IMG/VR virus record: IMGVR_UViG_3300049189_000069
Span: 1 to 52,148 of that record
Source: a virus
Taxonomy: Duplodnaviria; Caudoviricetes
Length of the DNA: 52,148 bases
Strand: one strand, 5' to 3'
In this document: positions 11,611 through 39,728 of the stretch, one piece after another
How positions within the stretch are numbered: position 1 is the first letter of the stretch
Layout: every line of letters starts with the position of its first letter
The notes under the pieces: generated by a model
Databases searched by the model: none
What the model was told of the DNA's origin: nothing
What the model saw: the letters and a program-made list of their open reading frames with translations, nothing else
Translations under genes and position numbers: made by a program

Positions 11611-11761
11611 CCTTGCCTGGTTGTCGCCCGATGTCAGGGCGACGGCCGAGTGGGTGACCAATGAGGTGAAGTTCCAAGCGCGCCAAGTGATCGCGCGCAT
11701 GATTCATGAAATCGCTCAGCGCAAGGAAGTGCTGGGCAACGACGAGTATGGGAGCTGGTGA
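11570..11761 (+). CDS. Small helical protein ending in YGSW (start uncertain)
   Basis: Fills the gap before the ligase. Confidence 0.55.
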   Translation: MQTNPNPTPGEVGDLAWLSPDVRATAEWVTNEVKFQARQVIARMIHEIAQRKEVLGNDEYGSW

Positions 11762-11766
11762 GAGCC

Positions 11767-13170
11767 ATGAACGATAAGTCACCGATGACTTCGAGCCAGG
11801 TCGTGGACGCGATCGCACAGATCGCCGGGACGTCCTCCACCAAGGCGAAGCAGGAGCTGTTGGCCGGCTTCATGCAAGACCCGACCTTCAAGCGCGTCGC
11901 GATCGCCGCGTACGACGTCGGCACCACGTACGGCATCGCGGACAAGACGCTTGCGGGCATCCACGTCGCCGGCAGCGCGCCCGGGCGTGACTTCGATGAC
12001 GGCACCTGGGCGCTGCTCGATGGACTCGCGAGGCGCGTGATCACCGGGCACGAGGCGGTGAATGCGATCTCCACGCAGCTGCAGGAACTGAACGTTCAAT
12101 CGTCGGGCCTGCTGCGCCAGATCCTGCTGCAGGACCTGCGCGCCGGCTTCACCGACACCATGATCAACAAGGTGGCGCCGGGCTCGATCGCCGAGTACCC
12201 GTACATGCGCTGCAGCCTGCCCGACAAGTCCAACATGGACAAGTGGGACTGGTCGAAGGGCGTCATCAGCCAGGAGAAGGCTGACGGCATGTTCTGCAAC
12301 GCGAACTGCGACGCCCAGGGCTACGTGTGGCTGACCACCCGTCAGGGCTCGCCCTTCCCGCGCGAAGCGATGGGCGTGCTGATCGGCTACATGGAGACGC
12401 TGCTGCAGCGCGACACCCAGACGCACGGCGAGCTGCTGGTGTTCCGCGACGGCGCGATCCTGCCCCGCGAGGTGGGCAACGGCATCCTCAACAAGGTGCT
12501 CAAGGGCGGCGAGCTCGAGCCCGGCTGCGTCGTGCGGTTCTTCGCCTGGGACAACATCCCGTTGGCGGCGGTCAAGCCCAAGGGCAAGGACGAGCGCCCG
12601 TACAAGCTGCGCCTGGCGACACTGCTGAACCACCTGTGCAAGCAGATCCCTGACGGGGATGCGCGCCTCGCAGCGCCGGTGCGCGTGATCGACACCCGCA
12701 TCGTGCGCAGCCTCGCGGACGCAAAGGCGCACGCCCGCGAGCTGCAGCGCCAGGACAAGGAAGGGACGATCGTCAGCAACCCGGACGCCCCGTGGAGGGA
12801 CGGCACGTCCAAGGACAAGGTCAAGCTCAAGGTCGAGGCCGACTGCGAGCTGATCGTGATTGCGAAGACCGAGGGCAAGGGCAAGAACGCCGACACGTTC
12901 GGCGCGCTGACCTGTCGCAGCGCCTGTGGGCTGCTGCAAGTCGACGTGCCGGTGCCCGACCCCAAGGACCGCAAGGCGCTGCACGAGGACCCGACCACCA
13001 TCGGCTCGATCATCACCACGCGCTTCAACGACATCATGGAACCGACCAAGGAAGGCGCGCTGCATTCCCTGTTCCTGCCTCGCTTCACCGAGCGCCGGCT
13101 GGACAAGTCCGAGGCGGACTCACTCGCCCGCATCCGTGAAGCCTTCAAGGCTGCTGTGGAGTTCGCATGA
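11767..13170 (+). CDS. ATP-dependent DNA ligase
   Basis: EKADG adenylation motif, HGEL, FFAWD, EGTIV, KLK, SLFLPRF..RLDK. Confidence 0.93.
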   Translation: MNDKSPMTSSQVVDAIAQIAGTSSTKAKQELLAGFMQDPTFKRVAIAAYDVGTTYGIADKTLAGIHVAGSAPGRDFDDGTWALLDGLARRVITGHEAVNAISTQLQELNVQSSGLLRQILLQDLRAGFTDTMINKVAPGSIAEYPYMRCSLPDKSNMDKWDWSKGVISQEKADGMFCNANCDAQGYVWLTTRQGSPFPREAMGVLIGYMETLLQRDTQTHGELLVFRDGAILPREVGNGILNKVLKGGELEPGCVVRFFAWDNIPLAAVKPKGKDERPYKLRLATLLNHLCKQIPDGDARLAAPVRVIDTRIVRSLADAKAHARELQRQDKEGTIVSNPDAPWRDGTSKDKVKLKVEADCELIVIAKTEGKGKNADTFGALTCRSACGLLQVDVPVPDPKDRKALHEDPTTIGSIITTRFNDIMEPTKEGALHSLFLPRFTERRLDKSEADSLARIREAFKAAVEFA

Positions 13171-20322: not shown

Positions 20323-23300
20323 ATGACCATCAACCACGCCCTCGCCATCCGCAGCGACTTCTCCATCGGGGAGGCTAGTCTGCAGGTTGGCAAGATCGTC
20401 GAGCGCGCGAAGGAGCTCGGCTTCGAGTCCGTCGCCCTGGTCGACACCATGTCGGTCTCCGGGATGCCCGACCTCGCCAGCAAGGCGAAGAAGGCGGGCA
20501 TCAAGCCCATCATCGGCTGCACGCTGCGCGTGTACGACGACTCGACCTGGCGCAAGCCCAAGAAAGGTGAGACGGGCCCGACCACCAACCCGATGCACAC
20601 CCTGAAGGTGTACGTACACACCGAGGACGGGCTGCGCCAGCTGTACAAGCTGCTCACGCTCGCCAACGACGAGGCGCACTTCTACTACAACGCCCGCGTC
20701 AGCTTCCAGGAGGTGCTGGATCACCTGCAGCCCGGCGACATCTCGGTCAGCACCGGCGACTTCTACGGGTTGTTCCACCACCCGGACTACTTCAGCCGCT
20801 GCACCTATCTGGTCGACCACTTCAAGACGCTGTGGCTGGAGGTGTCGGCGATCGACACGCCCCTGTTCGACACGCTGAACCTGCGTGCCAAGCACGTCTA
20901 CGACAGCCTGTCGGGCACCAGGCCGCTGATGACCTACCCGGCGCTCTACCCCGAGGGCCAGGCGGACAGCGCGGACGTGCTGCGCGCGATCACGAGCAAC
21001 AACAAGATGACGGACCCGTGGTTGCAGGTGCCGTACATCCGCGACTTCGAGCTCGCCACGCCCATGTCGCTGATGCAGCACGCCAAGAAGGTGATCGAGC
21101 GCGGCGATCTGCCCAGCGAGTTCATCAAGGAGGCGATCCGCAACGTGCCGGTGTTCGCGTCCCAGGACTTCTACGCTTTCGAGAAGAAGCCGCCGTCGCT
21201 GCCCGTGATGGCGCCCGACGAGTTCGTCGCGCTGGTCGACGAGTGCAAGAAGGGCTGGCACGAGCGCTTCCAACACGACGTGCTGGGGCACTGCCCCACA
21301 GGCGTCGACCGCAACACCGTCTACCGCCAGCGCCTGGCGTACGAGCTGGAGACCATCCGCAAGATGGGCTTCAGCGGCTACTTCCTGCTGGTGCAGGAGA
21401 TCGTGCGCTGGTCCAAGGACAACGGCATCATGGTCGGGCCAGGTCGGGGCTCGGTAGGCGGCTCGCTGATCGCCTACCTGATGGGCATCACCGACGTCGA
21501 CCCAATCCGCTTCAACCTCCTGTTCGAGCGGTTCATCAACCCCGACCGGGTGGACTTGCCTGACGCCGACCTGGACTTCATGTCCACCCGCCGGCAGGAG
21601 GTGATCGAGCACATCGAGCAGCGCTACGGCAAGGAGAACGTCGCCGGCATCAGCAACTACTCCCGTCTGGGTCCCGCGTCCGCCATGCGCGACGTCGGCC
21701 GGGTGTTCGGGCTGGACCTGCTGGAGCTGCATGCATCCAAGCAGACCGAGAAGGAGCACGGGGAACAGGTGCCACTCGCGGAGTCCGCGGAGAACGTCCC
21801 CGACATCGCCAAGTTCCGGGACAAGCATCCGACCGTCTGGAAGCACGCGCTAGCGCTGTCGCCCGAGACGCGCTCGGATTCCGGGTGCCTGCGATCGCTG
21901 GGGCGTCACGCCGCCGGTGTGGTGGTTGCCGGCGAGCCGGTCGTCAACCGGGCAGTCGTCGAGACCCGCAGCGGGGGCCAGGTGGTCAACTGGGACAAGC
22001 GCACGGTCGAGGATCACGGCTTGATCAAGATGGACATCCTGGGTCTGTCGACCCTGGACATCCTGCAGCTGTGCGCCAACTACATCAAGGAGCGGCACTT
22101 CAAGACGGTCGACTTCATGCGCCTGCCGCTGGACGACGAGCGTGTGCTGAAGGCGTTCGCCCGGGGCGAGACGGTGGGCGTGTTCCAGTACGAGTCGGGG
22201 GGCATGCGCAAGCTGCTGACCCAGCTCGCCGAGGGCGGGCCCCTGACGTTCGAGGACCTGGTTGCCGTGACCGCACTGTTCCGCCCGGGCCCGCTGGATG
22301 CGGGCATGTGCGACGACTACGTGGCGATCAAGCAGGGCACCAAGACCCCGTACTACGAGCACCCCAACGTGCGCGCCGCGCTCGAGCCCACCATGGGCGT
22401 CATCATCTACCAAGAGCAGGTGATGCAGATCTGCCGCGACGTGTCGGGCTTCACGATGACCGAAGCCGACCACGTGCGCAAAGCGATGGGCAAGAAGGAC
22501 AAGGACAAGATGGCGGAGTGGGGCGAGAAGTTCGTCCAGGGCGCCGCCACCGTGTCGGGCATGGGCGAGTTCCAGGCGAAGGCGCTGTGGGAGAAGCTCG
22601 CGGGCTTCGCCGCCTACGGTTTCAACCGCTCGCACGCGGTGGAGTACGCCGTCATCAGCTGGTGGTCGATGTGGTGCAAAGTTAACTACCCCGCCGAGTT
22701 CTTCGCAGCGGCGATGTCCACCGTCGACAAGGACGACAAGCTCTCGACCCTGATGCTCGACGCGCGCCGCTGTCACATCGAGGTGCTGCCGCCGGACATC
22801 AACCTGTCGACCAACCGCATCGAGATCCGCGGCGAGCGCGAGCTCATCGCCCCGTTCCAGGCGGTCAAGGGCATCAGCGAGAACGCCAGCAAGGCGATCA
22901 TGCACCTGCGCGGCCTGGCCGGCGGGAAGTTCGACAACATGGCGCAGCTCGAAGCGCTGGTGACCGCCAACAAGATGGGCGCCAAGTGCAACAAGACCCA
23001 CCGCGAGCGCCTGGAGAAGGTGGGTGCCTTCCACTCCACGGACGGTGGCCCCGCACCGACGCACGAGGATCGCCTGAAGGACCGGCTCGACCTGATGCCG
23101 GGCTTCACCGTCGACACCGTGAAGGCGACCCGTGCGATCGTCGCGGATACCTACGTGATGAGCAAGATGATCCGTCTGCACGAGGACGCGAAGATCTGCA
23201 CTGCCTGCTCGCTGGCCGGGCACAAGCACGTGGCTTCGCGCACGGGCAGGACACCGAAGTTCATGGTGGTCTTCGACAGCCCGAGCTACGCCGAGGACAA

Positions 23301-23709
23301 GGCGGAGAAGATGTTCGAGGGTGACATGGCCGACTACTTCAAGGCAGCACTCAAGGACGCCGGCGTGTCGCTCAACGACGGGCACTACACGGCGCTCGTG
23401 CGCGCCATGAAGCCCAAGGGGGCGAAGACGCTGACCACCGAGCAGATCAACGGCTGCAGCAACTTCCTGCTGCAGGAGATCGACCTGCTCAAGCCACCGG
23501 TGATCGTGGCGATGGGCTCCGCGGCGGTGAAGTTCTTTGCGCCAGGGATCAAGGGCAATCCTTCCGAACTGATCGGGAAGGTGGTGTTTGACTCGAAGCG
23601 GGATGCGTCGATCGTCTTCGGGCTGAACCCGGGCCAGGTCTTCCATGACCCCGCGAAGGTCGCGCTGCTCGAGACCGTGGCGCGCAAGATCGCTGACCTG
23701 ATCGTATAA
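20323..23709 (+). CDS. dnaE: DNA polymerase III alpha subunit with C-terminal uracil-DNA glycosylase-like domain
   Basis: PHP-like N-terminus, GPGRGSVGGS, LPDADLDF, HAAGVV, KMDILGL, YQEQVMQ, YGFNRSH; C-terminal CTACSL..EIDLLKPPVIVAMG family-4 UDG pattern. Confidence 0.95.
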   Translation: MTINHALAIRSDFSIGEASLQVGKIVERAKELGFESVALVDTMSVSGMPDLASKAKKAGIKPIIGCTLRVYDDSTWRKPKKGETGPTTNPMHTLKVYVHTEDGLRQLYKLLTLANDEAHFYYNARVSFQEVLDHLQPGDISVSTGDFYGLFHHPDYFSRCTYLVDHFKTLWLEVSAIDTPLFDTLNLRAKHVYDSLSGTRPLMTYPALYPEGQADSADVLRAITSNNKMTDPWLQVPYIRDFELATPMSLMQHAKKVIERGDLPSEFIKEAIRNVPVFASQDFYAFEKKPPSLPVMAPDEFVALVDECKKGWHERFQHDVLGHCPTGVDRNTVYRQRLAYELETIRKMGFSGYFLLVQEIVRWSKDNGIMVGPGRGSVGGSLIAYLMGITDVDPIRFNLLFERFINPDRVDLPDADLDFMSTRRQEVIEHIEQRYGKENVAGISNYSRLGPASAMRDVGRVFGLDLLELHASKQTEKEHGEQVPLAESAENVPDIAKFRDKHPTVWKHALALSPETRSDSGCLRSLGRHAAGVVVAGEPVVNRAVVETRSGGQVVNWDKRTVEDHGLIKMDILGLSTLDILQLCANYIKERHFKTVDFMRLPLDDERVLKAFARGETVGVFQYESGGMRKLLTQLAEGGPLTFEDLVAVTALFRPGPLDAGMCDDYVAIKQGTKTPYYEHPNVRAALEPTMGVIIYQEQVMQICRDVSGFTMTEADHVRKAMGKKDKDKMAEWGEKFVQGAATVSGMGEFQAKALWEKLAGFAAYGFNRSHAVEYAVISWWSMWCKVNYPAEFFAAAMSTVDKDDKLSTLMLDARRCHIEVLPPDINLSTNRIEIRGERELIAPFQAVKGISENASKAIMHLRGLAGGKFDNMAQLEALVTANKMGAKCNKTHRERLEKVGAFHSTDGGPAPTHEDRLKDRLDLMPGFTVDTVKATRAIVADTYVMSKMIRLHEDAKICTACSLAGHKHVASRTGRTPKFMVVFDSPSYAEDKAEKMFEGDMADYFKAALKDAGVSLNDGHYTALVRAMKPKGAKTLTTEQINGCSNFLLQEIDLLKPPVIVAMGSAAVKFFAPGIKGNPSELIGKVVFDSKRDASIVFGLNPGQVFHDPAKVALLETVARKIADLIV

Positions 23710-34699: not shown

Positions 34700-37048
34700 A
34701 TGCAAAACATGACCCCCGCGCGTGTCTACGCCGCGGGCATCGGCGACGCTGTCGCCGATCGCACCATCAATCGCAAGCTGGATCCCGAAACCCGCCTCGA
34801 GCTCGAGGCGTTGCCGCACGGCGTCAAGGACACCCGTGCCTTCGTACGCGAGACCTGGGAAGAGGTCGCGCTGCGCGTCGCCGAAGGCAACACGCTGCTG
34901 CATCCCAAGGACGCCGCGCACGAGTTCAGCGTCCTGCATCGCCACCTGCGTCAGGCATCCGTGCTGATGTCCGGTCGGCACCTGCAGCACGGTGACACCA
35001 CGCAGCCCTCGCGCAACCAGGAGGTGTTCACCAACTGCAGCACGAGCGCCATGTCCCTCGTTCTGTTCTACCTGCTGCTCAACGGCTCGGGCGTCGGTCG
35101 CTGCTACGACGACGACATGATGCTCGTGGACTGGTGCAAGAGCATGCCGGTTGTGGTGCCCTACATCAGCAACACGCACAAGGACGTGCTCACCGGCGAA
35201 ATCCCGGTGAAGTTCACCGACGACTTCTGGCAGTTCTTCGACGCCGACGAGGTGATCTACTTCGAGGTGCCCGACAGCCGCGAGGGCTGGGCGAAGGCGG
35301 TCGAGCAGATCGAGCGCTACACCTACGAGGGCGTGCACGCCAACAAGACGCTGGTGCTGGACTTCAGCCTGGTGCGCGAGAAGGGCGCTCCGATCCGCGG
35401 CATGCAGAACCGCCCCGCGTCCGGGCCGGCGCCGCTGATGCAGGCGATCGCGAACATCGGCACGCTCAAGGGCGGAAAGGTCGACCCGTTTGAAGCCACG
35501 ATGTGGGCCGACCACTACCTCGCCGAGTGCGTGCTGGTGGGTGGGGCCCGCCGCGCTGCGCGCATGGCGACCAAGACCTGGCGCGATCGCAACGTGCTGC
35601 GCTTTGTCAACATCAAGAAGGGCGGCGTGCTCTGGAGCTCGAACAACAGCGTCACGGTCGACGCCGAGTTCTGGGAGGGCGTGCGGGCGGTCGAGGAGGC
35701 GCTGGACCTGATCGGCAGCAAGGACCCCTGGGTGGCGCAGGAGATGCTCCTCAAGCTCGCCAGCAACGGCACCCTGACCGAGCTGCAGCTGCACGCCCAC
35801 CGCGTCTTCAGCGCCATCTGCCACGCGTCGTACTTCGACGGCACGGGCGAGCCCGGGCTGATCAACGTCGACCGGCTCACGCAGAACGACGAGGGCATCG
35901 AAGCGCTGCTCGACGGCGACTTCGCCGAGTCGCAGCGCTTCAAGCTGGACCCGCAGACCAAGCAGCTGACTGCGGCGCTCGCGAAGGTGTTCGCGACCAA
36001 GCCGCTGAACATGATCGTCAACCCGTGTGGGGAGATCCCACTGTCGCTGCTGGGCGGCTACTGCGTGATCGCGGACTGGGTGCCGTTCCACGCTGGTTCC
36101 CAGTCGCGCGAAGGCCCGGAGTTCTTCCTGCCCAACGAATGGGACGACGACGCCGAAGCCGCCATCCGTGCCGCGACGCGCGCCCTGATCCGCGTCAACA
36201 CGATGGATTGCCTCTACAGCAAGGAGGTGCGCCGCACCAACCGCATCGGGGTGGGCTTCACGGGCATCCACGAGTACGCCTGGGCGCGCTTCGGTTACGG
36301 CTGGAAGGATCTGGTCAACGAGCAGAAGAGCCTGTCCTTCTGGAAGACGATGGCGCGCTTCTCGTGCGCAGCGGTCGACGAGGCACGCACGTACAGCGCT
36401 GCGCTGGGTGTGCCGATGCCGCACACGGTGACCACGGTCAAGCCCGCCGGCACCACCAGCAAGCTCTTCGGGCTGTCCGAGGGCGCGCACCTGCCGAGCA
36501 TGCGTGAGTACCTTCGCTGGGTGCAGTTCCGCAACGACGATCCGCTGATCGAGGAGTACCGCGCGAAGGGCTACCCGGTGCGCCAGCTCAAGACCTACAG
36601 CGGAACGACCATCGTGGGCTTCCCAACGGTGCCGCAGATCTGCACGCTGGGCATGGGCGACAAGCTGGTGACGGCAGCCGAAGCGACGCCCGAGGAGCAG
36701 TACGAGTTCCTGCGCCTGCTGGAGAAGTATTGGCTGCACGGCGACGGCGCCCACCAGTACGGCGGACAGGTTAGCTACACGCTGAAGTACGACCCGAAGA
36801 CGGTGGACTTCGAGCATTTCCGCCGCACGCTGCTCGAGGGCCAGTCGACGATCAAGTGCTGCAGCGTCATGCCGCAGACCGACGCGACAAGCTACGAGTA
36901 CCAGCCCGAGGAGCCGGTGAGCAAGGAACGCTTCGATGAGATCGTTGCCGCGATCAAGACGGGCGCCCCGAAGGAAGACGTCGGCTTCGAGCACGTGGAC
37001 TGCAGTTCGGGGAGCTGTCCTGTGGATTTTTTGGGCAGCGAGAGGTGA
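34700..37048 (+). CDS. nrdJ: Ribonucleotide reductase, class II (adenosylcobalamin-dependent)
   Basis: SGR, TNC, DSREGW, GGARRAA, NPCGEI, TVKPAGT, C-terminal CSSGSCP; no beta subunit in the window. Confidence 0.88.
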   Translation: MQNMTPARVYAAGIGDAVADRTINRKLDPETRLELEALPHGVKDTRAFVRETWEEVALRVAEGNTLLHPKDAAHEFSVLHRHLRQASVLMSGRHLQHGDTTQPSRNQEVFTNCSTSAMSLVLFYLLLNGSGVGRCYDDDMMLVDWCKSMPVVVPYISNTHKDVLTGEIPVKFTDDFWQFFDADEVIYFEVPDSREGWAKAVEQIERYTYEGVHANKTLVLDFSLVREKGAPIRGMQNRPASGPAPLMQAIANIGTLKGGKVDPFEATMWADHYLAECVLVGGARRAARMATKTWRDRNVLRFVNIKKGGVLWSSNNSVTVDAEFWEGVRAVEEALDLIGSKDPWVAQEMLLKLASNGTLTELQLHAHRVFSAICHASYFDGTGEPGLINVDRLTQNDEGIEALLDGDFAESQRFKLDPQTKQLTAALAKVFATKPLNMIVNPCGEIPLSLLGGYCVIADWVPFHAGSQSREGPEFFLPNEWDDDAEAAIRAATRALIRVNTMDCLYSKEVRRTNRIGVGFTGIHEYAWARFGYGWKDLVNEQKSLSFWKTMARFSCAAVDEARTYSAALGVPMPHTVTTVKPAGTTSKLFGLSEGAHLPSMREYLRWVQFRNDDPLIEEYRAKGYPVRQLKTYSGTTIVGFPTVPQICTLGMGDKLVTAAEATPEEQYEFLRLLEKYWLHGDGAHQYGGQVSYTLKYDPKTVDFEHFRRTLLEGQSTIKCCSVMPQTDATSYEYQPEEPVSKERFDEIVAAIKTGAPKEDVGFEHVDCSSGSCPVDFLGSER

Positions 37049-37107
37049 TCGACTGGCCCGAGTTGCGGTTTGGGCCAGTCAACCTGCTTACCATTGGGCG
37101 TCAAACA

Positions 37108-37129
37108 TAAGTAAGCAGTGAGCTATACT
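37108..37129 (+). promoter_or_regulatory. Operator copy fused to TATACT, driving the ribozyme-tRNA transcript
   Basis: TAAGTAAGCAGTGAGCTATACT. Confidence 0.78.
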
Positions 37130-37139
37130 GCTTAGCGAA

Positions 37140-37222
37140 CCTCCTGATGAGCCCGTGAGATCCGGGCGAAACATCAACCGGGCAACTGCGGTGATCCACC
37201 GGAGCCTTGGTTGATGTCGGGG
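37140..37222 (+). ncRNA. Type I hammerhead ribozyme; predicted cleavage 3' of C37218
   Basis: Stem I CCUC/GGGG; CUGAUGA 37144-37150; stem II GCCCG/CGGGC; GAAA 37168-37171; stem III ACAUCAACC/GGUUGAUGU; GUC triplet 37216-37218. Confidence 0.9.
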
Positions 37223-37283
37223 CGAATGCAGGCGAGGTCTACATGGATAAGGTGACTTCGCCAACACCTAGTCGCCCCGACTT
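37219..37283 (+). ncRNA. Putative small structured RNA between the ribozyme cut and tRNA-Asn
   Basis: GGGGCGA/UCGCCCC terminal stem, internal loop, GGCGAGGUC/GACUUCGCC stem. Confidence 0.55.
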
Positions 37284-37358
37284 TCCGAGGTAGCTCAGCG
37301 GTAGAGCAGGGGACTGTTAATCCCCTGGTCGGTGGTTCGATCCCACCCCTCGGAGCCA
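37284..37358 (+). tRNA. tRNA-Asn (GTT)
   Basis: Cloverleaf: TCCGAGG/CCTCGGA, anticodon loop CTGTTAA, TTCGATC T-loop, encoded CCA. Confidence 0.95.
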
Positions 37359-37360
37359 AA

Positions 37361-37435
37361 GGCCCTGTCGACCAGCGGTTAGGTCACCACCCTTTCACGG
37401 TGGTAACGCGGGTTCGAATCCCGCCAGGGCTACCA
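37361..37435 (+). tRNA. tRNA-Glu (TTC)
   Basis: Cloverleaf: GGCCCTG/CAGGGCT, anticodon loop CTTTCAC, TTCGAAT T-loop, encoded CCA. Confidence 0.95.
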
Positions 37436-37503
37436 GTTTGAGGGGACGTCGTTGTGGATGACGGGCAAGTTAGGCAGAGGGTCGATTACTGGACGCCAGC
37501 ATC

Positions 37504-38543: not shown

Positions 38544-39728
38544 ATGAGCGCATTCGAGTGCCCGGTCGTCCGGGTGAACATCGAGCCGCATCCGAACGCG
38601 GATGCGATCGAGCTCGCCGTCGTCGGCGGCTACATCTCCATCGTCAAGAAGGGTCAGTTCAAGAACGGCGATCTCGCCGTCTACATCCCCGAGCAGGCGG
38701 TGCTGCCCGAGTGGCTGCTGAAGTCGCTGGGCTTCTGGGACGACATGAACGGCAAGGGCAAGCTCTCGGGCGGCGCCGGCAACCGGGTGCGCGCAATCAA
38801 GCTGCGCGGCGTGCTGTCGCAGGGCATCCTGCTCGACGGTGACAACTACGAGGGCGACTGGGTGCTTGGCGGCGCACCCACCGAGATCGGCGTTCCGCTG
38901 CGCGACTTCAACGAGGGCGACGACGCCGCCGAGTTCCTGGGCATCACCAAGTTCGAACCCAAGGTGCCCGCGCAGATGGCGGGCAAGGTCGCCGGCGGCG
39001 ATCTGGATGCGACGATCGGCTTCGACTTCGAGAACCTGAAGAAGTGCCCGAGCCTGTTCGAAGACGGCATGGAAGTCGTCATCACCGAGAAGATCCACGG
39101 CACGCTGCTGCAGGTCGGCATCGTCCCGCGGCGCATCTGGGAGGGCAAGTCCTGGGCGGACAAGTGCCCGGACGTGGGCGACGACTTCAAGGGCATCGTC
39201 ACCAGCAAGGGCCAGGGCGCGAAGGGCCTGATGCTGGACCCCTCGGACACGACCAACCTCTACGTCAAGGCGGCGATCGAGGCGGGGATGTGGGAGAAGC
39301 TGCAGGCGATGCGCACCGAGGTGCTGGGCCACCCCGACGACATGCCGCTGTTCATCTTCGGCGAGATCTTCGGCATCGGCGTCCAGGACCTGGGCTACGG
39401 GCAGGAGAAGCCGGGGTTCCGTGCGTTCGACATCTACGCCGGCACGCGCAGCAACGGCTTCTACCTGACCCATGACCTGCTGGTGCAGTGCCTGGGTCGC
39501 GGTGACCTGCCCATGGTGCCGCAGCTGTATCGCGGACCCTTCAGCGCCGGCGTGGTGAAGCTGCACACGGACGGCAACACGATCATCAACGGCGTCAAGC
39601 AGATCCGCGAGGGCGTCGTCGTGAAGGCAGCGCACGACACCAACCACCCGCGCTACGGGCGCCGGATCGCGAAGAGCGTGTCCGAAGCCTACCTGCTGCG
39701 CAAGGGCGAGGTGACGGAGTACCAGTAG
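38544..39728 (+). CDS. ATP-dependent RNA ligase, DRB0094-like family
   Basis: N-terminal PHPNADAIELA..KKGQF..GDLAVY..LRGVLSQG; TEKIHGT, FGEIFG, FRAFD, REGVVVK, KSVS..YL. Confidence 0.9.
   Translation: MSAFECPVVRVNIEPHPNADAIELAVVGGYISIVKKGQFKNGDLAVYIPEQAVLPEWLLKSLGFWDDMNGKGKLSGGAGNRVRAIKLRGVLSQGILLDGDNYEGDWVLGGAPTEIGVPLRDFNEGDDAAEFLGITKFEPKVPAQMAGKVAGGDLDATIGFDFENLKKCPSLFEDGMEVVITEKIHGTLLQVGIVPRRIWEGKSWADKCPDVGDDFKGIVTSKGQGAKGLMLDPSDTTNLYVKAAIEAGMWEKLQAMRTEVLGHPDDMPLFIFGEIFGIGVQDLGYGQEKPGFRAFDIYAGTRSNGFYLTHDLLVQCLGRGDLPMVPQLYRGPFSAGVVKLHTDGNTIINGVKQIREGVVVKAAHDTNHPRYGRRIAKSVSEAYLLRKGEVTEYQ

Follow-up and report, generated by a model that had tools for sequence, protein, structure and literature searches.

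A predicted hammerhead ribozyme next to a candidate stem-only Y RNA ahead of two tRNA genes in a phage contig

The stretch of DNA analysed here, referred to as the window, is the whole of IMG/VR record IMGVR_UViG_3300049189_000069, a Caudoviricetes contig of 52,148 base pairs (bp) with a G+C content of 64% and an estimated completeness of 48%. Its sole RNA-gene cluster lies 3' of a class II ribonucleotide reductase (RNR) gene and consists of a predicted type I hammerhead ribozyme, a short RNA that resembles the stem of bacterial Y RNAs, and two tRNA genes (Table 1). For the region between the ribozyme and tRNA-Asn an earlier note on this sequence had proposed either a kinetic switch acting on the ribozyme or the excision of a discrete RNA. 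Our analysis suggests that a discrete RNA is the most sensible reading, because 37219-37283 is homologous from end to end to a known small RNA. We lean, with moderate confidence, towards a full mechanism in which a short Y RNA gene at the head of the two-tRNA array of a soil phage would be freed by the hammerhead and by RNase P.

The RNA between the predicted ribozyme cut and the start of tRNA-Asn comprises 65 nucleotides (nt), in agreement with the length of about 65 nt given in the note. It folds at -29.3 kcal/mol (z = -3.87), and 1 of 200 shuffled sequences was equally stable. The complementarity that had been claimed between 37216-37225 and 37272-37281 is exact, with ten Watson-Crick pairs, and the helix is not attributable to chance because a perfect complement of a given 10-mer within ~40 downstream positions has, by our own arithmetic, a probability of the order of 4e-5. 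Within this helix there is indeed a second stem, of 9 bp including one G-U (37231-37239 with 37254-37262), closed by a 14-nt loop (37240-37253). The three outermost pairs of the 10-bp helix, GUC 37216-37218 with GAC 37279-37281, can form in the uncleaved precursor only. The note had also pointed to a possible pseudoknot between AGGU (37250-37253) and ACCU (37266-37269). The pairing is possible, and the run extends to 5 nt (p ~0.05 against shuffles), but it is not a trait of the family to which we assign the RNA: the longest run between loop and internal loop averages 2.94 across 48 short Y RNAs, versus 3.11 in shuffles.

The identity of the 65-nt RNA was first suggested by Rfam. A scan at relaxed thresholds returned YrlA (RF02553) and YrlB as the two best families for 37219-37283, at 22.9 and 19.5 bits, and both alignments run from end to end, that of YrlB from 37214 and that of YrlA from 37219, the first base after the predicted ribozyme cut. 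Both scores are far below the gathering thresholds of 69 and 97 bits, which counts against the assignment, and the identity was therefore tested independently. For bacterial Y RNAs a shared short motif close to the 5' end, GNCGAAN0-1G, has been described and proposed as the contact for Ro60/Rsr (Chen et al. 2014, PMC4201824), and it occurs at the corresponding place in the window RNA. To obtain YrlA sequences for comparison, one genome per prokaryote species was scanned for the motif as it stands in the window, with sequence words for the T arm and the D arm following in permuted order. This gave at least 120 stretches, against about 2 expected by chance on our own estimate, from Sphingomonas, Rhizobium, relatives of Pseudomonas, Massilia, planctomycetes, acidobacteria and others. 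Ten neighbouring open reading frames (ORFs) were tested; those of ~515 amino acids (aa) were Ro60/Rsr in 7 of 7 cases (vWA_Ro60, some also TROVE) and those of 408 aa were RtcB in 3 of 3, and these are therefore genuine rsr-yrlA-rtcB loci.

Of the 26 pairs in the RNAalifold structure of 101 YrlA sequences from rsr-rtcB loci, 14 show compensatory changes, and there is independent covariation of the two outer pairs of the terminal stem. Both halves of the stem of these RNAs closely match the window RNA. The 5' half consists of two variable bases, GGCGAAUGC, a helix strand and then CUACAU, and the 3' half of the other helix strand, a loop of 8-9 nt of the form CAA..CU.G, and UCGCC followed by two covarying bases. 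A covariance model of the 101 sequences, from which the window sequence was excluded, was run over the whole window with filters off. Its top match, 37219-37278, scores 34.0 bits (E=3.3e-7), spans model positions 1-116 and recovers the long stem of the 5' and 3' ends with its internal loop. Seventy model positions of the tRNA-like domain are replaced in this match by 13 nt, as 59 are by 9 in the Rfam YrlA alignment. The second match (21.1 bits, 37297-37410) is trivial, consisting of the T arm of tRNA-Asn and the D arm of tRNA-Glu, and the best runner-up that is not a tRNA reaches 16.1 bits, with the rest at ~16 or less. Adjacent tRNAs imitate the permuted tRNA-like domain and are a predictable false positive of YrlA searches in tRNA arrays, as was also seen in another locus (L021). 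A second point against the assignment is that the training set was picked with the 9-mer GGCGAAUGC, which is also in the window, so the 34.0 bits are partly inflated by construction; the Rfam result is free of this bias. When the two strands were modelled separately as hidden Markov models (HMMs), the best match of the 5' strand in the window was 37221-37247 (E=0.0027), whereas the 3'-strand HMM ranked the Y RNA site third (E=1.9), and the 3' strand is therefore not recognisable by its sequence alone.

The 5' 26 nt and the 3' 24 nt of the window RNA are homologous to the YrlA stem. The permuted tRNA-like domain, with its T and D arms, is missing, and for this reason the RNA is not filed as YrlA; the position of YrlA within ~4 kb of rsr on the same strand, a criterion of Chen et al. 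2014 (PMC4201824), is likewise not reproduced in the 52-kb window. The absence of the tRNA-like domain also bears on the suggestion in the note that the excised RNA could act as a tRNA decoy. As a decoy or minihelix, its 7-bp stem would mimic an acceptor stem and engage enzymes such as the CCA-adding enzyme, synthetases or anticodon nucleases. The terminal stem is G-C-rich, has the 7 bp and carries a single-stranded 3' tail, and tRNA mimicry is known from YrlA RNAs of full length (Chen et al. 2014, PMC4201824). Such mimicry, however, resides in exactly the portion of Y RNAs that is absent here: 37219-37283 has neither a T arm nor a D arm and forms no cloverleaf, and it is matched by neither ARAGORN nor the Rfam tRNA model. 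We therefore dropped this candidate, which we regard as extremely unlikely. The acceptor-like stem described in the note exists as a 7-bp stem, but it is the conserved terminal stem of Y RNAs.

Y RNAs that lack the tRNA-like domain are also found in bacteria. In 100 bacterial loci (L184-L283) the YrlA covariance model identified 371 Y RNAs, which must therefore lie in tandem arrays, and these include stem-only forms of 54-80 nt that score 37-46 bits. The arrays at rsr-rtcB mix full-length tRNA mimics with short stem-only Y RNAs, and some, such as that of L259, hold more than 10 copies. A finder based on the motif and the stem gave 301 Y RNAs in 120 bacterial loci, 55 of them of 80 nt or less, a few of which are evident truncation artefacts. 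The window RNA aligns over its full length with the bacterial short Y RNAs and has in common with them the invariant GAAUGC, CUACA and U.GUC. It has every part of a stem-only Y RNA, namely a terminal stem with GAAUGC (37224-37229, invariant in the family alignments), a second helix with CUACA, and a 3' internal loop that ends in U.GUC. The 14-nt apical loop, which contains the invariant CUACA (37239-37243), takes the place of YrlA's tRNA-like domain. Y homology extends over 37219-37278, and the remaining 5 nt, 37279-37283, form a 3' tail.

A MAFFT alignment was made of 27 viral and 20 bacterial short Y RNAs together with the window RNA (n=48). In this alignment 96.1% of cells are paired, versus 34-57% when the partners are slid, and the covariation score is 0.654 versus at most 0.137. 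The terminal stem is 99.7% paired, but its pairing was a criterion of selection, and therefore only the second helix, which was not used for selection, provides independent support; it is 93% paired and shows double changes in 6 of its 8 pairs. All 14 invariant columns hold in the window row, which is itself part of the alignment, and in the window the inner four pairs of the second helix are offset by one column, with one extra base. Overall, we consider it very probable that 37219-37283 is a homologue of the Y RNA stem.

Our results also suggest that short Y RNAs are not confined to bacteria. When IMG/VR was searched with a consensus pattern of the short form, 96 stretches contained 99 matches. 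At least six of the seven terminal-stem pairs are present in 45 viral matches and all seven in 29, where by our own arithmetic ~7 and 0.7 would be expected by chance, and ~40 IMG/VR phage contigs (among L306-L399) carry unannotated stem-only Y RNAs of 55-80 nt, several of them inserted right between the tRNAs of large arrays. A tRNA lies on the same strand within the fetched locus for 21 of the 45, and within 40 nt for 7. Four of the 45 (L330, L338, L364 and L374) have tRNAs on both sides at 0-28 nt, and ordinary processing of tRNA ends would therefore release the Y RNA. In 18 of the phage loci with short Y RNAs, Rfam at gathering thresholds reported tRNAs only. Ro60 is encoded in three of five phage records with short Y RNAs, one of which is a complete 407-kb genome, and is lacking in the other two, one of which is a complete 73.5-kb genome (the record of L371).

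The RNA that the window RNA resembles most is the short bacterial Y RNA. Chen et al. 2014 (PMC4201824) described YrlB and Yrn2 as 'long hairpin' Y RNAs, and found YrlB orthologues by BLAST in other S. enterica serovars only. Like YrlB (Salmonella, M. smegmatis), Yrn2 (D. radiodurans) and the tandem 54-80-nt copies, the window RNA has a 7-bp terminal stem with GNCGAAN0-1G / GAAUGC (PMC4201824), an asymmetric internal loop, a second helix ending in CUACA, a length of ~60 nt and no tRNA-like domain. Unlike the bacterial short forms, which lie a few kb from rsr in tandem with YrlA, it comes from a phage contig whose 52 kb hold no Ro60 gene, is joined to a tRNA array, and would have its 5' end set by a predicted ribozyme. 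With YrlA it shares stem homology at both ends, whereas the ~65-nt permuted tRNA-like domain of YrlA (T, anticodon-like and D arms) is reduced in the window RNA to a 14-nt loop. Phage Y RNAs beside a phage Ro60 have been reported from mycobacteriophages such as Bxz1 and ET08, and 22 phage matches are listed in supplementary tables (Chen et al. 2014, PMC4201824); Thermus phage phiLo has a Ro60-Yrl pair with Yrl1/Yrl2 (PMC12135203), and a preprint remarks of some annotated tRNAs 3' of a Ro60-like gene in phage Bas63 that they 'are possibly Y RNAs' (PMC11482910). In our own control on Bxz1, a YrlA-like match lies directly upstream of the TROVE gene. The window RNA is like those of Bxz1, ET08 and phiLo in being a phage Y RNA with a CGAA-type motif and unlike them in that their Y RNAs stand beside their own Ro60, while the half-complete window contig has none; the accessible parts of the sources mention no ribozyme for those phages. 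In the open-access literature, with subscription journals and supplements outside its scope, we found neither a hammerhead or other ribozyme linked to a Y RNA nor a description of stem-only Y RNAs inside phage tRNA arrays.

Directly upstream of the Y RNA lies the hammerhead. Its core, following the definition in Perreault et al. 2011 (PMC3088659), is complete at all conserved positions (C3 U4 G5 A6 N7 G8 A9, G12 A13 A14, A15.1-U16.1 and H17), with CUGAUGA at 37144-37150, GAAA at 37168-37171, A15.1-U16.1 as A37171-U37217, and C17 as C37218. There are three helices, of which II and III are closed and I is open: stem I pairs 37140-37143 with 37219-37222 (4 bp), stem II 37151-37155 with 37163-37167 (5 bp, loop 37156-37162), and stem III 37171-37182 with 37206-37217 (12 bp). 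In folding, stem I is possibly lengthened by 3 pairs, 37135-37137 with 37227-37229, across an AA/CGAA loop. According to our descriptor this is the only hammerhead motif of any topology in the window. Among 150 random windows of the same dinucleotide make-up we found one type I hammerhead at loose thresholds, a random expectation of 0.0067 per window, and none with stems of at least 4/5/9 bp. The predicted cut lies exactly at the base that the Y RNA matches align to model position 1. Cleavage by a hammerhead leaves a 2',3'-cyclic phosphate, which would here be on C37218, and a 5'-OH, which would be on G37219.

An alternative is that the motif is a chance look-alike that does not cleave, in which case the 5' end of the Y RNA would come from a host nuclease or from transcription initiation. 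Consistent with this, no Rfam hammerhead model reaches its gathering score; at relaxed thresholds the best, Hammerhead_3, matches the front half only, at 19.4 of 48.5 bits, a poor fit that is likely due to the long 45-nt stem III. Stem I has 4 contiguous pairs only, no tertiary contact between stems I and II (loop-loop or pseudoknot) was identified in the predicted hammerhead, and no homologue of it was found. On the other hand, all core positions are canonical, the closing helices have 5 and 12 bp, no site as good was present in the 150 random windows, and the predicted cut falls on the first base of an RNA that was defined independently. A chance origin thus appears very unlikely to us, and the hammerhead is with high probability genuine.

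A 9-bp hairpin directly 5' of the hammerhead is separated from stem I by GCGAA, and CGAAU trails the 3' side of stem I. This near-symmetric loop, GCGAA/CGAAU, might form the tertiary contact of the ribozyme together with the flanking hairpins. An extended stem I, with CUGC 37128-37131 paired to GCAG 37228-37231, was considered and dropped, the bases being occupied by the 9-bp hairpin. Elsewhere, four sites satisfied the strict hammerhead descriptor in 1.06 Mb of unrelated viral loci (L026-L154).

The first four bases of the 5' strand of the Y RNA double as the 3' strand of hammerhead stem I, and because the substrate strand of the ribozyme is in this way placed inside the Y RNA, the two folds compete. 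The 10-bp helix competes with stem I of the hammerhead and also with the final two pairs of its stem III. As long as the transcript ends between 37225 and 37271, the fold in which the hammerhead is active lies no more than 1.2-3.2 kcal/mol from the optimum. After the 3' arm has been made, the alternative helix is favoured by 6.7 kcal/mol (end at 37278), by 8.3 when the three extra pairs are included (37283) and by 11.1 with downstream sequence (37290). The mutual exclusivity of helix and ribozyme asserted in the note is thus borne out by folding energies, by 6.7-11.1 kcal/mol. At equilibrium the ribozyme is predicted to be off in the full precursor, which speaks against self-excision, and efficient cleavage would therefore need fast co-transcriptional action. 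Seven of the ten helix pairs are the conserved terminal stem of Y RNAs. Nothing clearly sets the other three, GUC/GAC, apart: among Y RNAs, the 7-bp stem is extended by at least 3 bp in 4 of 29 viral ones, 7 of 55 short bacterial ones and 22 of 246 of full length.

These data bear directly on the possibility of a regulated switch, in which the 10-bp helix, including GUC/GAC, would exist to turn the ribozyme off, and the ratio of cut to uncut transcripts, which would also decide what becomes of the RNR mRNA and the tRNAs, would be set by transcription speed or by a factor that binds the downstream arm. In its favour, the alternative fold is ahead by 6.7-11.1 kcal/mol once the 3' arm is made, and the helix is 3 bp longer than the 7-bp stem of the family and covers the cleavage triplet; three extra Watson-Crick pairs have a chance of 1/64 by our own arithmetic. 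Against it, 7 of the 10 pairs are explained by the conserved terminal stem, extensions of at least 3 bp occur in ~9-14% of other, ribozyme-free Y RNAs, and there are no relatives in which conservation of the extension can be compared. We consider a regulated switch unlikely. Of the kinetic switch in the note, the competition with stem I agrees with the energies, but a switch as the purpose of the helix is unneeded, the helix being the functional stem of the Y RNA. What looks like a switch is best understood as a competition between the ribozyme and the stem of the very RNA that it would release.

The mechanism that we favour would proceed as follows. The Y RNA would be made within a longer transcript. 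Since no tRNA lies upstream of it, the hammerhead would supply the 5' cut: using the first Y bases as the 3' strand of stem I, it would cut after C37218 during transcription and leave a 5'-OH at the base of the Y terminal stem. When 37272-37278 is transcribed, the terminal stem would form and take the substrate strand from the ribozyme, which would limit the time for cleavage to ~50 nt of transcription; after the cut, the same stem would block re-ligation. RNase P, acting at the 5' end of tRNA-Asn, would make the 3' end of the Y RNA, with the 5-nt tail remaining. The free Y RNA, if it accumulates, may then bind Ro60/Rsr of the host, or a phage copy encoded in the unsequenced half of the genome, and would occupy it without the partner recruited by longer Y RNAs, because the tRNA-like arm is missing.

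The closest functional analogue is, by its proposed role, the theta (HDV-like) ribozyme, which has been suggested to trim the 3' trailers of gut-phage tRNAs (PMC10879173). In both cases a small cis-acting ribozyme would set an end of a structured RNA in a phage tRNA cluster in place of a host nuclease; unlike theta ribozymes, which are HDV-like and act on tRNA 3' trailers, the hammerhead here would make the 5' end of an RNA that is not a tRNA. As in the intergenic hammerheads of phages and bacteria in Perreault et al. 2011 (PMC3088659), the core is canonical, the location is intergenic and the ribozyme presumably cuts a polycistronic transcript. It differs from those hammerheads, whose purpose is mostly unknown, in that an RNA gene can be recognised in the product downstream of the cut, and in that the substrate strand is at the same time the proposed protein-binding motif of this product.

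The mechanism also has to be weighed against a series of negative results. No hammerhead was found within 250 nt upstream of any of the 45 phage short Y RNAs with a relaxed descriptor, and the hammerhead solution is therefore so far unique to the window; nor did our descriptor find one in 891 kb of bacterial rsr loci. Loci of RNR homologues (13 viral and 17 from metagenomes, at up to 66% protein identity) contained neither hammerhead nor Y RNA, and two leads among them were trivial, one a 16-nt identity within a gene and the other a tRNA pair scored by the YrlA model. The RNA ligase, used as a query, gave no relatives, and a blastn search of 37050-37450 against 50,697 phage records returned tRNA parts only, among the 40 of 801 records listed. 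In viral contigs the pattern GGCGAATGC..AGTCGCC occurs in at least 119 stretches, mostly by chance in coding DNA; one is near a tRNA and none has a hammerhead upstream, and a combined hammerhead-plus-Y pattern gave 10 stretches, all chance-like. With no relative that has the pairing, the ribozyme and its coupling to the Y RNA are therefore without comparative support. In addition, neither Ro60/Rsr (TROVE, vWA_Ro60) nor RtcB is encoded in the 52-kb window of this 48% complete contig, and a 470-aa ORF without a Pfam family (11758-13170), considered as a hidden Ro60, is a DNA ligase. Five relatives that are 92-100% complete have no TROVE; the same relatives also lack the Y RNA. In contigs assembled from four public runs (two RNA, two DNA), 37132-37192 is uncovered in all four, and those of the RNA runs give no cover of the Y RNA.

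Some of these observations would also be expected if the hammerhead served mainly to separate the mRNA from the tRNAs and the Y-like hairpin were a decaying, functionless remnant of an RNA captured from a host rsr locus. The RNR message would then be trimmed to a 3' end consisting of the stable stem III hairpin with a cyclic phosphate, and the tRNA precursor would be freed. The ribozyme is ~90 nt past the RNR stop codon with no promoter-like site between, there is no Ro60 gene in the window, and no relative has the element, all of which fit. What does not fit decay is that GAAUGC, CUACA and U.GUC, invariant in the family, and both helices are intact, that the tRNA-like domain is swapped for a clean loop instead of being degraded, that the stem-only form recurs in ~50 bacterial and ~40 phage copies, and that the cut is exactly at the first base of Y homology. 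We regard this alternative as distinctly unlikely, and prefer release of a short Y RNA.

If a short Y RNA is released, its role may be considered. We speculate, with low confidence, that the truncated Y RNA is a phage weapon that loads host Rsr into dead-end complexes and so disables, in the course of infection, the RNA-repair and quality-control response of rsr-yrl-rtcB, and that the stem-only phage Y RNAs are a widespread class aimed at Ro60. In that case the stem that binds Ro60/Rsr would have been kept and the arm that recruits partners such as PNPase lost, the hammerhead would tie the decoy's release to the moment when an early operon for nucleotide metabolism is transcribed, the 5'-OH end would be poorly handled by host RNases that depend on a 5'-monophosphate, and the stem-only Y RNAs in phage tRNA arrays would be widespread unannotated small RNAs directed at Ro60. 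Independently of this speculation, a function is known for only a handful of hammerheads from bacteria or phages; in the present case the cut would yield a product that can be identified as an RNA gene, and the role of the ribozyme is therefore directly testable. The same bases would serve as the substrate strand of the ribozyme and then as the protein-binding motif of its product, one sequence with two ordered folds. Short Y RNAs without the arm are present in many phage contigs, some between tRNAs, and are missed at Rfam gathering scores. If phage Y RNAs act on host Ro60/Rsr, they would offer a handle on the role of bacterial Ro60 during infection.

Table 1. Positions of the features discussed, in the window unless a locus number is given
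Feature	Position	Strand	Basis or remark
Class II (B12-type) ribonucleotide reductase	34700..37048	+	ORF; Pfam PF21995, PF02867
9-bp hairpin directly 5' of hammerhead	37112..37134	+	in every precursor fold; terminator-like site on opposite strand
Type I hammerhead (predicted), enzyme part	37135..37218	+	own descriptor scan, stems I/II/III 4/5/12 bp
Predicted self-cleavage site	37218..37219	+	follows from hammerhead core
Candidate stem-only ('mini') Y RNA, 65 nt	37219..37283	+	Rfam YrlA 22.9/YrlB 19.5 bits; own YrlA model 34.0 bits; alignment with 47 short Y RNAs
Y terminal stem, 5' strand	37219..37225	+	pairs with 37272-37278, 7 bp
GNCGAAN0-1G motif, proposed Ro60/Rsr contact	37221..37228	+	motif of Chen et al. 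2014; invariant columns in family alignments
Second helix and apical loop	37231..37262	+	37231-37239/37254-37262; loop 37240-37253
3' internal loop, 9 nt	37263..37271	+	fits family pattern CAA..CU.G
3' arm of 10-bp helix	37272..37281	+	37272-37278 = Y terminal stem; GAC 37279-37281 extra
tRNA-Asn (GUU), CCA encoded	37284..37358	+	ARAGORN; Rfam tRNA 69.6 bits
tRNA-Glu (UUC), CCA encoded	37361..37435	+	ARAGORN; Rfam tRNA 66.2 bits
ATP-dependent RNA ligase (Rnl-type)	38544..39728	+	Pfam PF09414, PF21189; phrog_968 RNA ligase
Phage short Y RNAs, examples	L330:1212-1281; L338:1563-1625; L364:4806-4866; L374:6982-7040; L371:2670-2729

The genes of the window form a phage replication and nucleotide-metabolism block according to Pfam and PHROG annotation. 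They encode a DnaB-like helicase, a primase, a DNA ligase and a CobT/CobS-like pair; a Pol III alpha fused to a uracil-DNA glycosylase (UDG) domain, SSB, an exonuclease and RecA; an SMC-like ATPase, RuvC and the class II RNR; and the Rnl-type RNA ligase, ThyX and dUTPase. The RNR gene, as the upstream neighbour, possibly shares a transcript with the RNA cluster, and a promoter-type scan of the interval up to the ribozyme found nothing resembling a sigma-70 promoter. A hairpin followed by a T run, similar to a terminator (37008-37022), is present within the last 40 nt of the RNR frame, 5' of the ribozyme. The RNA ligase gene begins 1.1 kb downstream of the RNA cluster, to which it is tied by neighbourhood alone.

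DNA nearly identical to the window is present in soil and rhizosphere sequencing runs, and 24 public runs from these two sources hold parts of a 4-kb stretch. Among the contigs of the four runs mentioned above, those of the DNA runs show no difference from the window wherever they overlap it and hence hold no variants for covariation, and those of the RNA runs cover the tRNAs with mismatches, as from other organisms. One rhizosphere metatranscriptome contig is identical to 151 nt of the RNR gene (36468-36618); the phage or its DNA was therefore present in that RNA library, an observation that is silent on the RNA cluster. In a phage related through its RNR (L005:6275-9917), 16 tRNAs and a permuted transfer-messenger RNA (tmRNA) lie directly 3' of the RNR gene, and this array occupies the place held in the window by the ribozyme, the Y RNA and the two tRNAs. 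The Pol III alpha-type polymerase of the window (20323-23709) has its uracil-DNA glycosylase superfamily domain at the C-terminus, at residues 977-1088.

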